This document shows positions 17,543 to 18,912 of a DNA stretch of 32,000 nucleotides, in pieces. A program made the position numbers and the translations under genes. The first letter of the stretch is position 1. Each line of letters starts with the position of its first letter. The notes under the pieces are model-generated. The model did not search any database and was not told where the DNA came from. It saw only the letters and a list, made by a program, of their open reading frames with translations. The DNA comes from an uncultured Fibrobacterota bacterium (GTDB lineage Bacteria > Fibrobacterota > OXYB2-FULL-49-7 > JAEUSG01): positions 44,725 through 76,724 of the forward strand of contig CAWHPS010000035.1 in assembly GCA_963831235.1 (NCBI GenBank). The letters run 5' to 3'.

Positions 17543-18619
17543 ATGTCAAATGCCTGTTGCGGAACAATGTCTAAAAATAATGGAACAGACACCCTTGCCC
17601 CTTCACCCTGGTCCATTGATTCCATCTGGAAATTTGCTGATTATTATGGTGCAATTGCTGTAAGGCTTTTTGACTCCAAAAGAAACAGCTATAAGGTCAA
17701 TCCGGGCCTGTACAAACTGGGCCATCCTGCACCCGACTCTCCTGTGTTTGCGTCTGCCAATTACAAATTAAGCTTTGATATCCTGCGTAAATCGCTCTCT
17801 AATATTGATTGCTGGATTCTTGTCCTAGATACCAAGGGAATAAACGTCTGGTGCGCTGCTGGAAAAGGCACATTTGGAACAAATGAATTGAATAAGCAGA
17901 TCATGCTTACCAATCTGCACAACAAAGTAACGCATCGTAAAATTATTGTGCCGCAACTTGGCGCATCTAATTTAAAGGCGCATGAGGTCAAAAAACTCAC
18001 GGATTTTCATGTTGAATACGGGCCTGTTCGGGCTCGGGATTTAAAGGAATATCTGAATAACGGTCATAAGGCATCTGCCAAAATGCGTGCAATCCAATTT
18101 CCAATGTATGATCGTTTTATACTTACACCAATGGAAATAGCACAAGCCTATAAACCTGTTTTAATTTTTCTAATATGCTCTATTTTCCTGACAGGGGTAA
18201 TCAAATCTAATCTTCAGGTAACACAGGTTTGGCGGCTAATGCTTCCAATTATTCTTGGAAGCCTTATAAGCCTTGCAGGAGGAGCATTTATTACTCCTCT
18301 TTTCCTGCCCTTTATTCCATTTCGTTCTTTTGCCTTGAAAGGTCTTTGGGTTGGCATTTTGTGCATTGGTATTTACCTTGGTTGTAATCCGGAGATTTTT
18401 AATTCTTTGCCGCTCTTCATTTTCCTCTGTATTATGGCGCCAGCTTTCAGTTCTTTTCTTGCGCTGAATTTTACTGGAGCATCCACATTCACCAATCCTT
18501 CGGGTGTTAAAAAAGAGATGAAGGCTTCAATCCCTTTCTATATAGGGGCTGCGGCAATTTCGCTTTCTTTACTTATTGCATTTTTCATACAAATCTGGAG
18601 GGCCAAATGGTATATATGA
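17543..18619 (+). CDS. hgcA: Mercury-methylation corrinoid protein HgcA
   Basis: 358 aa: YKVNPGLYKLGHPAPDSPVFASANYKLSFDILRKSL...DCWILVLDTKGINVWCAAGKGTFGTNEL, the diagnostic N(V/I)WCA(A/G)GK cap-helix motif, followed by C-terminal transmembrane helices. Confidence 0.95.
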   Translation: MSNACCGTMSKNNGTDTLAPSPWSIDSIWKFADYYGAIAVRLFDSKRNSYKVNPGLYKLGHPAPDSPVFASANYKLSFDILRKSLSNIDCWILVLDTKGINVWCAAGKGTFGTNELNKQIMLTNLHNKVTHRKIIVPQLGASNLKAHEVKKLTDFHVEYGPVRARDLKEYLNNGHKASAKMRAIQFPMYDRFILTPMEIAQAYKPVLIFLICSIFLTGVIKSNLQVTQVWRLMLPIILGSLISLAGGAFITPLFLPFIPFRSFALKGLWVGILCIGIYLGCNPEIFNSLPLFIFLCIMAPAFSSFLALNFTGASTFTNPSGVKKEMKASIPFYIGAAAISLSLLIAFFIQIWRAKWYI

Positions 18620-18912
18620 AAGATGTTACATCATTGCAATACAATGTTTCCTCTTGCAATGGTTGCAGCAGATGCACACAGGTTTGTCCAAGGAATGTTT
18701 TTGTAATGCAAGGCAATAAAGCTGTTCTTACAAGCAAAGACAAATGCATTGAATGCGGTGCCTGCATGAACAATTGCGCTTCAGGGGCTATTTCTGTCAA
18801 ACCTGGCGTAGGATGCGCTGCGGCCATGTTTGATGGACTCTTGCGGTTTGGGGACATGGAAAAGGGAACCTGCGGGTGCGAAAGTGATGATGATAACCGA
18901 GGCTGTTGCTGA
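18607..18912 (+). CDS. hgcB: Mercury-methylation ferredoxin HgcB
   Basis: Overlaps the hgcA 3' end; CNGCSRCTQVCP and CIECGACMNNCA clusters, C-terminal extension with Cys ending ...RGCC. Alternative start at 18616 (ATGA overlap with the hgcA stop). Confidence 0.95.
   Translation: MVYMKDVTSLQYNVSSCNGCSRCTQVCPRNVFVMQGNKAVLTSKDKCIECGACMNNCASGAISVKPGVGCAAAMFDGLLRFGDMEKGTCGCESDDDNRGCC

Follow-up and report, generated by a model that had tools for sequence, protein, structure and literature searches.

The hgcA and hgcB genes form a two-gene system with which anaerobic microbes convert inorganic mercury into toxic methylmercury. In the 32,000-nucleotide stretch of DNA analysed here (the window), they were found as the second and third genes of an eight-gene co-directional cluster, in the order arsR, hgcA, hgcB, arsC, a gene for a 213-aa protein, a CcdA-like gene, acr3, and a gene for a 196-aa protein (Table 1). 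The gaps between these genes range from −13 to +33 nt, and the GC content of the cluster (41–44%) is the same as that of the remainder of the window. No RNA family was found in the window with Rfam, and no tRNA with ARAGORN. The start of acr3 was taken from an independent gene call.

Table 1 Coordinates of the features at the hgcAB locus (positions of the window).
Feature	Position	Strand	Basis or description
Complete insertion sequence (IS), 2,056 bp, just 5' of the operon	15011-17066	-	Perfect 19-bp terminal inverted repeats
ISKra4-like transposase, two ORFs	16221-16640 and 15038-16294		NCBIfam 124.9 bits, below the cutoff of 205
DUF6788 ORF within the IS	16647-16940		Pfam
Candidate sigma-70-like promoter, TTGAAA-17-TATATT	17083-17111	+	Consensus match
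Candidate ArsR operator, palindrome with 12-nt arms spanning the arsR start codon	17104-17115 / 17122-17133	+	Inferred
arsR, ArsR/SmtB metalloregulator	17119-17520	+	HTH_5 8e-15; NF033788 87.7 bits (cutoff 55)
hgcA, corrinoid protein of the mercury methylation complex	17543-18619	+	358 aa; NF040863
HgcA CFeSP-like corrinoid domain	17609-18058	+	Pfam CdhD, PDB 2h9a/4c1n, Foldseek
HgcA cap-helix motif NVWCAAGK, residues 101-108	17843-17866	+	Direct reading
Membrane domain of HgcA (residues 188-357) with five TM helices	18104-18613	+	Hydropathy and AlphaFold2
hgcB, 2x[4Fe-4S] ferredoxin partner	18607-18912	+	101 aa; NF040864
arsC, thioredoxin-coupled (LMW-PTP type) arsenate reductase	18930-19385	+	TIGR02691
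213-aa protein, no significant family	19378-20019	+	N-terminal CCGPDCGC, one TM segment, C-terminal GGCC...C
231-aa polytopic membrane protein, distantly CcdA/DsbD-like	20027-20722	+	ASACCTLP and CSLPCNPG motifs
acr3, arsenite efflux transporter	20740-21783	+	TIGR00832 430 bits (cutoff 282.8)
196-aa membrane-anchored protein, last co-directional gene	21817-22407	+	Translation
EamA gene, convergent, 3' of the cluster	22460-23362		

The hgcA ATG is preceded at 6–11 nt by AAGGAG, and the encoded protein matched the NCBIfam HgcA equivalog model NF040863 nearly end to end (residues 25–346 on profile positions 4–321 of 325), with 381 bits (E = 4e-114; cutoff 275). The ORF contains KGINVWCAAGKG, and the Cys of its cap-helix motif, Cys104 (TGC, 17852-17854), is the counterpart of Cys93 in strain ND132, the proposed Co-thiolate ligand. 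The segment DTKGINVWC.AGK was invariant in the window protein and in all of its 80 best genome relatives, the Cys column included (n = 81), and the residue following this Cys was Ala in 79 of the 81 sequences. Among 101 columns conserved at 90% or more in 98 relatives, 96 were retained in the window HgcA, the five departures being G87N, G143N, G154D, G223N, and T314S. Five hydrophobic segments were recognized by hydropathy (residues ~206–224, 232–250, 263–281, 289–307, and 334–352), and the AlphaFold2 model (pLDDT 89.6, pTM 0.84) placed helices at residues 188–218, 226–253, 263–287, 289–311, and 319–357. The top Foldseek match of this model was the HgcAB model of P. mercurii ND132 (9a0b_A; E = 5e-20, ~37% identity over 323 columns, TM-score 0.61–0.65).

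The HgcB protein matched NF040864 over residues 3–101 (profile positions 2–93 of 93) with 103.5 bits (E = 4e-30), passing the cutoff of 99 by only 4.5 bits. Two CX2CX2CX3C motifs, CNGCSRCTQVC (17–27) and CIECGACMNNC (47–57), were found, and several Pfam Fer4 dicluster families matched. Cys70, the counterpart of Cys73 of ND132, lies 13 residues beyond Cys57, a spacing shared by 74 of 76 relatives. The C-terminus of the protein is RGCC (Cys100/101); a Cys within the last six residues was found in 75 of 77 sequences. Two ATG codons overlap the end of hgcA (stop TGA at 18617-18619), one at 18607 (13 nt) and one at 18616 (4 nt, ATGA). The start at 18607, with a predicted 13-nt overlap, is favoured because GGAGG lies 5 nt upstream and because the resulting N-terminus, MVYMKDVTSL, aligns position by position with those of homologues (e.g., MKYLTDVTTL). 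An hgcB homologue was present in 78 of the 80 best genome relatives, adjoining hgcA in nearly all of them, and it also follows hgcA in the closest full-length relative. Both hgcA and hgcB are free of frameshifts and stops and keep all invariant residues. These data bear out a preliminary description of this DNA, which had read a corrinoid-coordinating Cys motif and TM helices in HgcA, two CX2CX2CX3C clusters with C-terminal vicinal cysteines in HgcB, full-length ORFs whose profiles are indeed covered almost completely, and an hgcB start near 18607 or 18616 that overlaps the hgcA stop.

The pair was then set beside that of P. mercurii (Desulfovibrio desulfuricans) ND132, in which hgcA and hgcB are likewise found with an arsR-family regulator immediately 5'. 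The HgcA proteins share the CFeSP-like corrinoid domain, the ligand Cys in a cap-helix NVWCAAGK, and the five TM helices, and the HgcB proteins share the two CX2CX2CX3C motifs, the Cys 13 residues past the second cluster, and the C-terminal CC; the window HgcB differs by an additional CGC at residues 89–91 and by Ala instead of Pro after the second cluster, Ala being found in 16 of 76 relatives. Mutagenesis in ND132 has shown HgcA Cys93 and HgcB Cys73 and Cys94/95 to be critical (PMC7305189), and the counterparts of all of them are present in the window pair. We consider it very probable that the two genes encode a genuine and intact HgcA–HgcB pair, that is, a corrinoid methyltransferase bound to the membrane together with the ferredoxin dedicated to it, with cofactor binding and activity presumed from the comparison. 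Against this weigh the narrow margin of HgcB and the divergence of HgcA, including its five departures from the consensus. The preliminary description had spoken of a potential mercury methylator, and, given family models and mutagenesis-relevant residues read from sequence, "potential" is the correct word. Neither the presence of hgcAB nor its transcripts predict the methylation rate (bioRxiv 10.1101/2022.10.17.512643).

The proposed mechanism is the one derived from studies of P. mercurii ND132, applied by orthology. The two [4Fe-4S] clusters of HgcB would reduce the cobalamin held in the N-terminal domain of HgcA to Co(I), which S-adenosylmethionine would methylate to methyl-Co(III), with Cys104 as the lower thiolate ligand. 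The methyl group would then pass to Hg(II), probably presented by Cys100/101 of HgcB, Cys70 may aid the release of CH3Hg+, and the five-helix domain of HgcA would hold the complex in the membrane. Both the SAM-dependent mechanism and the Co-thiolate (Cys-on) ligation come from biochemistry of the ND132 enzyme (PMC11588087), the sole one known to have been characterised in this way.

The hgcAB genes of ND132 have no ars structural genes near them (bioRxiv 10.1101/2022.10.17.512643), whereas in the window the pair is directly followed by arsC, acr3, and the genes for two Cys-rich membrane proteins. The ArsR protein carries the As(III)-type motif ELCVC and extra C-terminal cysteines (CTEC, CSC). 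The candidate operator overlaps the candidate promoter, although promoter-like sites in this region were no more numerous than in shuffled sequences. The best ArsR homologues, all with GELCVC, were ArsRs encoded immediately 5' of hgcA in Fibrobacterota loci. Four clusters from Fibrobacterota MAGs (L007, Fibrobacteraceae; L001, Chitinispirillaceae; L070 and L076, Fibrobacter sp.) encode such a GELCVC-type ArsR with a near-identical recognition helix (E = 1e-29 to 2e-33); in three of these clusters its gene is located immediately 5' of hgcA. The Fibrobacteraceae cluster L007 also shares arsC (3e-43) and acr3 (5e-179) with the window, but its order differs, with arsC 5' of hgcA. The HgcA proteins of these four clusters are just 44–47% identical to that of the window and stand apart from it in a rough neighbor-joining (NJ) tree, and their loci show no synteny with the window outside the cluster.

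The other neighbors of hgcAB gave little family information. The 213-aa gene overlaps the arsC stop by 8 nt and is likewise found 3' of arsC in the relative L086; searches of Pfam and NCBIfam with its product returned nothing significant (best Pfam E = 0.07), and a thioredoxin-like resemblance of the body of the protein was not significant. The 231-aa protein had no significant Pfam or NCBIfam family, and its resemblance to the first TM helix of MerT was not significant (E = 0.07); by tblastn it was 27–28% identical to annotated CcdA genes (E = 7e-5). No family match in Pfam or NCBIfam was found for the 196-aa protein. Homologues of the 231-aa, CcdA-like protein are encoded immediately 5' of hgcA in two loci from unrelated Bacteroidales genomes, L063 (8e-34) and L074 (2e-23).

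Within flanks of up to 8 kb (less where the contig was small), arsR was found near hgcAB in 27 of the best 80 loci, arsC in 11, and acr3 in 14; in many relatives, arsR stands immediately 5' of the pair. Since the other 53 loci are without arsR, most are without arsC or acr3, and the closest full-length relative has none of the three, the linkage between hgcAB and ars genes is, on these genome comparisons, facultative. This linkage has already been published (PMC7438021; bioRxiv 10.1101/2022.10.17.512643), and the placement of hgcAB between arsR and arsC-acr3 is a clean natural instance of it that leaves knowledge of the system unchanged. The hgcAB pair is putatively co-transcribed with its neighbors, and the ELCVC-type ArsR encoded upstream, and through it arsenite, most likely governs its expression. 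The cluster may serve as a convenient construct for the study of arsenite control of hgcAB and of the role of its Cys-rich membrane neighbors.

In arsC, an in-frame TGA (18960-18962) occupies precisely the codon of the catalytic Cys in the CX5R loop, as judged from the read-through translation aligned with Cys-containing homologues; the fold and the second and third cysteines (TVC, ETC) are present. The 132-aa portion after the TGA matched TIGR02691 from profile position 14 with 97 bits, below the cutoff of 174. The closest relative carries TGT in place of the TGA, with 83% amino acid identity and local DNA that is nearly identical, and the L007 arsC also encodes Cys there. A selenocysteine-containing ArsC, which would be a new LMW-PTP-type selenoprotein, was considered and found no support in three tests: the RNA 3' of the TGA folds no better than shuffled sequences (z = −0.25), and similar folds occur in Cys-encoding homologues; metagenomes scanned for a TGA that precedes TGNSCRSQMAEG yielded five contigs, with only one distinct sequence intact and three degenerate; and the closest relative has the TGT noted above. 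Selenocysteine is now a minority possibility. The known Sec-ArsC families are of the COG1393 type (PMC9312934, PMC2398784).

The inverted repeats of the IS (2 matches versus 0.01 expected) are flanked by a 9-bp target-site duplication, CTTTGGTTC, at 15002-15010 and 17067-17075, and the transposase is split at a T5C6 homopolymer run. Because the inverted repeats are perfect and the 9-bp duplication is preserved, the insertion is, by these marks, recent. Its end lies about 8–16 nt from the candidate promoter. Mobile carriage of hgcAB was rejected: the operon lies outside this element, which is a simple insertion flanked by a target duplication of its own, and the GC content of the cluster does not depart from that of the rest of the window.

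Given the proximity of the IS to the candidate promoter and the TGA at the catalytic codon of arsC, some of the operon may be undergoing decay or be expressed poorly. Extended to hgcAB, this would mean a locus intact on paper but silent or decaying under relaxed selection, in an organism that does not methylate mercury in practice, a reading we regard as improbable. The loss of the arsC catalytic Cys codon that its closest relative keeps would fit it, as would the absence of detectable Fibrobacteres hgcA transcripts in a permafrost metatranscriptome (PMC7438021), but the uninterrupted hgcA and hgcB genes, and the promoter-like site, palindrome, and ribosome-binding sites left untouched by the IS, argue against it. 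In addition, the transposase split at T5C6 could be an assembly error, in which case the arsC TGA would also come under suspicion as a base error. It is far less credible still, indeed hardly tenable, that the ORFs are paralogues, be it a Wood–Ljungdahl pathway corrinoid protein of the CFeSP/CdhD type or members of the non-methylating fused HgcAB-like family. Pfam, in which we know of no HgcA-specific family, gave only CdhD (PF03599) for HgcA, and the corrinoid-binding Rossmann-like domain of the CFeSP large subunit (AcsC/CdhE) is homologous to that of HgcA, with matches by PDB sequence search (2h9a/4c1n, residues 41–170, E = 8e-10) and by Foldseek (2ycl, 4c1n, 2h9a, and 4djd, E = 3e-8). However, the CdhD match spans just 123 residues (43–165) against the last third of the model, the N-terminal [4Fe-4S] domain and TIM barrel of CFeSP are absent, a five-helix membrane domain unknown to CFeSP stands instead, and CFeSP has Thr or Ala in the alignment at the position of the cap-helix Cys. 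The fused HgcAB-like proteins (NF043039; e.g., of Pyrococcus furiosus and Kosmotoga pacifica), which serve as outgroup paralogues in hgcAB phylogenies (PMC7438021), have the corrinoid, TM, and ferredoxin modules in common with the window proteins, but in a single polypeptide, whereas hgcA and hgcB are two separate, overlapping genes. The preliminary description had proposed HgcA and HgcB profile searches, with placement in the CdhD-like family as the outcome opposed to its reading. Both equivalog cutoffs were passed, and HgcA scored only 76 bits (cutoff 306) on the acetyl-CoA decarbonylase/synthase gamma subunit model NF003195, restricted to profile positions 318–446 of 450, and a sub-threshold 186 bits on NF043039 (cutoff 285), on which HgcB reached 55.

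A different question is whether a genuine HgcA–HgcB pair has been selected for mercury at all. Its selected role could be the handling of arsenic or another metalloid, with mercury methylation as a side reaction; this reading is compatible with the preferred one, and we hold it to be a real, if lesser, possibility. The pair could then transfer methyl groups to another soft metal(loid), or traffic it, with arsenite controlling its expression jointly with that of arsC and acr3. The position of hgcAB between an ELCVC-type arsR and arsC/acr3, in overlapping or tightly spaced genes with no terminator signal above background, points this way, as do the recurrence of the association across phyla in the best 80 relatives and the arrangement arsR-arsC-hgcA-hgcB-acr3 in the Fibrobacteraceae cluster. 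In ND132, moreover, hgcAB transcription is ArsR-dependent and responsive to arsenic and SAH, and a ∆hgcAB mutant is more sensitive to As(V) (bioRxiv 10.1101/2022.10.17.512643). However, the facultative nature of the linkage, down to the closest full-length relative, weighs against such a role, no arsenic compound is known to be a substrate or product of HgcAB, and shared regulation alone can cluster metal-related genes. More tentatively, and with somewhat greater doubt, hgcAB could in this lineage be a working part of an arsenite-inducible detoxification operon, selected for the handling of arsenic or another thiophilic metal(loid), whose substrate the two Cys-rich membrane proteins would deliver or export and of which mercury methylation would be a by-product.

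The hgcAB pair is, to our knowledge, the sole known genetic marker of microbial methylmercury production, and each confirmed carrier therefore enlarges the list of organisms for mercury risk models. The preliminary description had called the pair rare and not taxon-bound, and both statements held: only 373 clusters (50% identity) among 1.84 billion matched at E ≤ 1e-30, and the best 80 genome relatives are spread over Nitrospirota, Fibrobacterota, Spirochaetota, Bacteroidota, Desulfobacterota, Bacillota, KSB1, Actinomycetota, Planctomycetota, and Aminicenantes. No other full-length sequence found exceeds 56% identity to the window HgcA, which in the rough NJ tree of 81 sequences formed a long, unplaced branch beside a Spirochaetia sequence. 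Such a divergent HgcA could escape primers or read-mapping references based on better-known clades. Already known in Fibrobacterota, hgcA is represented here by a sequence-divergent but otherwise ordinary example. No flanking gene of the window had a syntenic counterpart in the 80 relative loci. The host is probably an anaerobic, Chitinivibrionales-like member of the Fibrobacterota, as suggested by a few named database matches: those of the ABC-F protein of the window (72–74% identity) were to Chitinispirillaceae and Chitinivibrionales, the best ArsR matches were to Fibrobacterota, and a weak T9SS sorting-domain match was found in the window.

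The two reading frames called as an hgcAB pair in the preliminary description were found at the positions it gave. Translation of the first contained KGINVWCAAGKG, with NVWCAAGK at residues 101-108 and the codon of Cys104 at 17852-17854, while the second encoded both ferredoxin cluster motifs (CNGCSRCTQVC and CIECGACMNNC), a single Cys70, a CGC at residues 89-91 and the C-terminal RGCC. The hgcA ATG is preceded by AAGGAG at a distance of 6-11 nt, and two candidate hgcB ATG codons (18607 and 18616) both overlap the hgcA stop codon (18617-18619), as had been claimed. The start at 18607 is favoured because it has a GGAGG 5 nt upstream and yields an N-terminus (MVYMKDVTSL) matching homologues residue for residue.

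In Pfam, the only family matching the hgcA product was CdhD (PF03599, residues 43-165); to our knowledge, Pfam holds no HgcA-specific family. The possibility that the protein is CdhD-like rather than HgcA, which the preliminary description had raised against its own call, was not borne out by the profile search that it proposed. With NCBIfam, HgcA_corrinoid scored 381 bits (cutoff 275) over positions 4-321 of its 325-residue profile, whereas the acetyl-CoA decarbonylase/synthase gamma subunit reached 76 bits against a cutoff of 306 and the fused HgcAB-like paralogue 186 against 285. HgcA is thus clearly set apart from both at the profile level. HgcB_ferredoxin passed narrowly (103.5 bits, cutoff 99).

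The AlphaFold2 model of HgcA, built with 98 homologues, was confident (pLDDT 89.6, pTM 0.84) and predicted an alpha/beta domain spanning residues 23-172 and, after it, five long helices (188-218, 226-253, 263-287, 289-311, and 319-357), in agreement with the hydropathy profile and with the transmembrane helices noted previously. [quoted passage not shown] A search of solved structures returned relatives for the corrinoid domain only (residues 41-170), namely 2h9a and 4c1n (E about 8e-10), large subunits of CFeSP that, unlike HgcA, lack a Cys at the aligned position of the cap-helix Cys. The HgcA N-terminus, MSNACCGT (17543-17570), includes two adjacent Cys in a tail modelled with low confidence (pLDDT below 50); a Cys also occurs there in the consensus of the 98 relatives, in which the tail is otherwise variable.

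DTKGINVWC.AGK was invariant in an alignment with HgcA from the 80 best species-representative genomes, and the residue after the cap-helix Cys was Ala in 79 of these 81 sequences. Among columns at least 90% conserved in the 98 database relatives, 96 of 101 were kept, the departures being G87N, G143N, G154D, G223N, and T314S. In HgcB, the Cys at +13 past the second cluster motif, common to 74 of 76 relatives, is the counterpart of ND132 Cys73, which is essential (mutagenesis summarised in PMC7305189); a Cys within the last six residues was found in 75 of 77 sequences. An hgcB homologue was present in 78 of the 80 loci, almost always adjoining hgcA, and lay directly 3' of hgcA in the closest full-length relative. 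That the system is rare and not taxon-bound is a fair description: matches to HgcA at E<=1e-30 amounted to 373 clusters (50% identity) among 1.84 billion, and the relatives from the 80 genomes were phylogenetically scattered. Identical copies of HgcA, HgcB and the 213-aa protein encoded downstream occur in NCBI/ENA on a 295.5-kb contig. Beyond these, one HgcA fragment was 82% identical and the best other full-length HgcA 56% identical; in a rough neighbour-joining tree of 81 sequences, the protein formed a long branch without clear placement.

Features of the ars-hgc region and of neighbouring segments (window positions)
Feature	Position	Strand	Remarks
ISL3-family transposase ORF	6254-7231	-	DDE_Tnp_ISL3, HTH, zinc ribbon
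RND efflux system, three genes	9058-14522	-	outer-membrane factor, HlyD-type adaptor, AcrB-type pump
Complete IS, 2,056 bp	15011-17066 (15002-17075 with target duplication)		perfect 19-bp terminal inverted repeats; 9-bp target-site duplication
arsR	17119-17520	+	NF033788, 87.7 bits (cutoff 55); ELCVC motif
hgcA	17543-18619	+	358 aa; HgcA family-specific NCBIfam match
hgcB	18607-18912	+	101 aa; HgcB family-specific NCBIfam match
arsC	18930-19385	+	thioredoxin-coupled type
Cys-rich membrane-anchored protein	19378-20019	+	213 aa; no family
CcdA-like membrane protein	20027-20722	+	231 aa; tblastn E 7e-5 to annotated CcdA
acr3	20740-21783	+	TIGR00832, 430 bits (cutoff 282.8)
196-aa protein	21817-22407	+	no family

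The preliminary description did not mention the context of the pair, genes 2-3 of a compact co-directional eight-gene cluster with intergenic distances of -13 to +33 nt, followed by a convergent EamA gene. Terminator-like sites in the cluster region did not exceed those in shuffles, and none lay between genes. A palindrome with 12-nt arms (17104-17133) spans the arsR start and overlaps a promoter-like site (17083-17111); it is plausibly an ArsR operator. The 213-aa protein combines an N-terminal CCGPDCGC, one transmembrane segment and a C-terminal GGCC...C; its gene overlaps arsC by 8 nt, is translationally coupled to it, and again follows arsC in the closest relative contig, L086 (at 459-791 there). 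The 231-aa protein is polytopic with ASACCTLP and CSLPCNPG motifs; its likeness to CcdA is distant, and its resemblance to MerT TM1 was not significant (E 0.07). In two Bacteroidales MAGs, a homologue immediately precedes hgcA (L063, 7238-7942; L074, 1-471), and the protein may therefore be a recurrent hgcAB partner.

Across the 80 relative loci, no synteny of the flanks was shared, and ars genes were present as arsR in 27 (mostly directly upstream of hgcA), arsC in 11, and acr3 in 14. The window ArsR was nearest to the GELCVC ArsRs of four Fibrobacterota hgcAB loci (L076, L007, L070, and L001; E 1e-29 to 2e-33), of which L007 has the order arsR-arsC-hgcA-hgcB-acr3, whereas arsC follows hgcB in the window. 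Flanking acr3, arsC, arsM, and arsR genes were reported by McDaniel et al. [quoted passage not shown] The pair is a divergent new example of a well-known system, in a previously described operon context. We consider it rather unlikely that hgcAB serves arsenic or metalloid handling here, built into the ars operon and regulated by arsenite. By analogy with ND132 (PMC11588087, PMC7305189), HgcB would reduce the HgcA cobalamin to Co(I), SAM would then methylate it to Cys-thiolate-ligated methyl-Co(III), and the methyl group would pass to Hg(II), proposed to be delivered by the terminal Cys pair of HgcB; the organism is best described as a potential mercury methylator, as the preliminary description had it.

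The arsC frame contains an in-frame TGA (18960-18962) at the catalytic Cys position of the CX5R loop, MENKLKILFL*TGNSCRSQMAEG, where aligned homologues have Cys; the rest of the frame is intact. Selenocysteine was considered, and a nonsense mutation or base error appears more likely, because no distinctive SECIS-like fold was found downstream of the TGA, the TGA-bearing homologues of a metagenome scan (five contigs) gave one distinct intact sequence, on two identical contigs, and the closest relative (L086, 83% amino acid identity, identical downstream gene type) has TGT at this site. Known selenocysteine ArsC families are of the COG1393 type, not the LMW-PTP type found here (PMC9312934, PMC2398784). 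Re-initiation at ATG 18987, which has a GGAG 5 nt upstream, could yield a catalytically dead ArsC.

The insertion sequence (terminal inverted repeats GGGTGCATGACAGCTAATG, target-site duplication CTTTGGTTC) separates a divergent gene of 124 aa from the promoter region of arsR-hgcAB; counted from its target duplication, the promoter-like site is 8 nt downstream. The element encodes an ISKra4-like transposase together with a DUF6788 protein, and represents a simple, recent insertion event rather than a carrier of hgcAB. The transposase is broken into two overlapping frames (16221-16294) at a T5C6 homopolymer (about 16245-16256), which may reflect a real frameshift or an error in assembling the homopolymer; in the latter case, single-base features of the contig, such as the arsC TGA, would deserve less trust.

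The window ABC-F protein had named matches (72-74% identity) from Chitinispirillaceae and Chitinivibrionales, and a DUF362 protein showed a weak T9SS sorting-domain match. Together with the ArsR affinities, these suggest, with moderate confidence, a Chitinivibrionales-like member of Fibrobacterota, a phylum already listed among hgcA carriers (PMC7438021). The lowest-GC kilobase (34%, 23000-24125), upstream of an amt-glnB (ammonium transporter/P-II) pair, contained no long ORFs or Rfam families. The ISL3 ORF, a second mobile-element trace, is probably truncated, since it matches the DDE domain over its first half only; a 327-aa ORF overlaps it on the opposite strand. The RND efflux genes lie directly upstream of the insertion sequence and the ars-hgc region, in an area rich in export and resistance functions.
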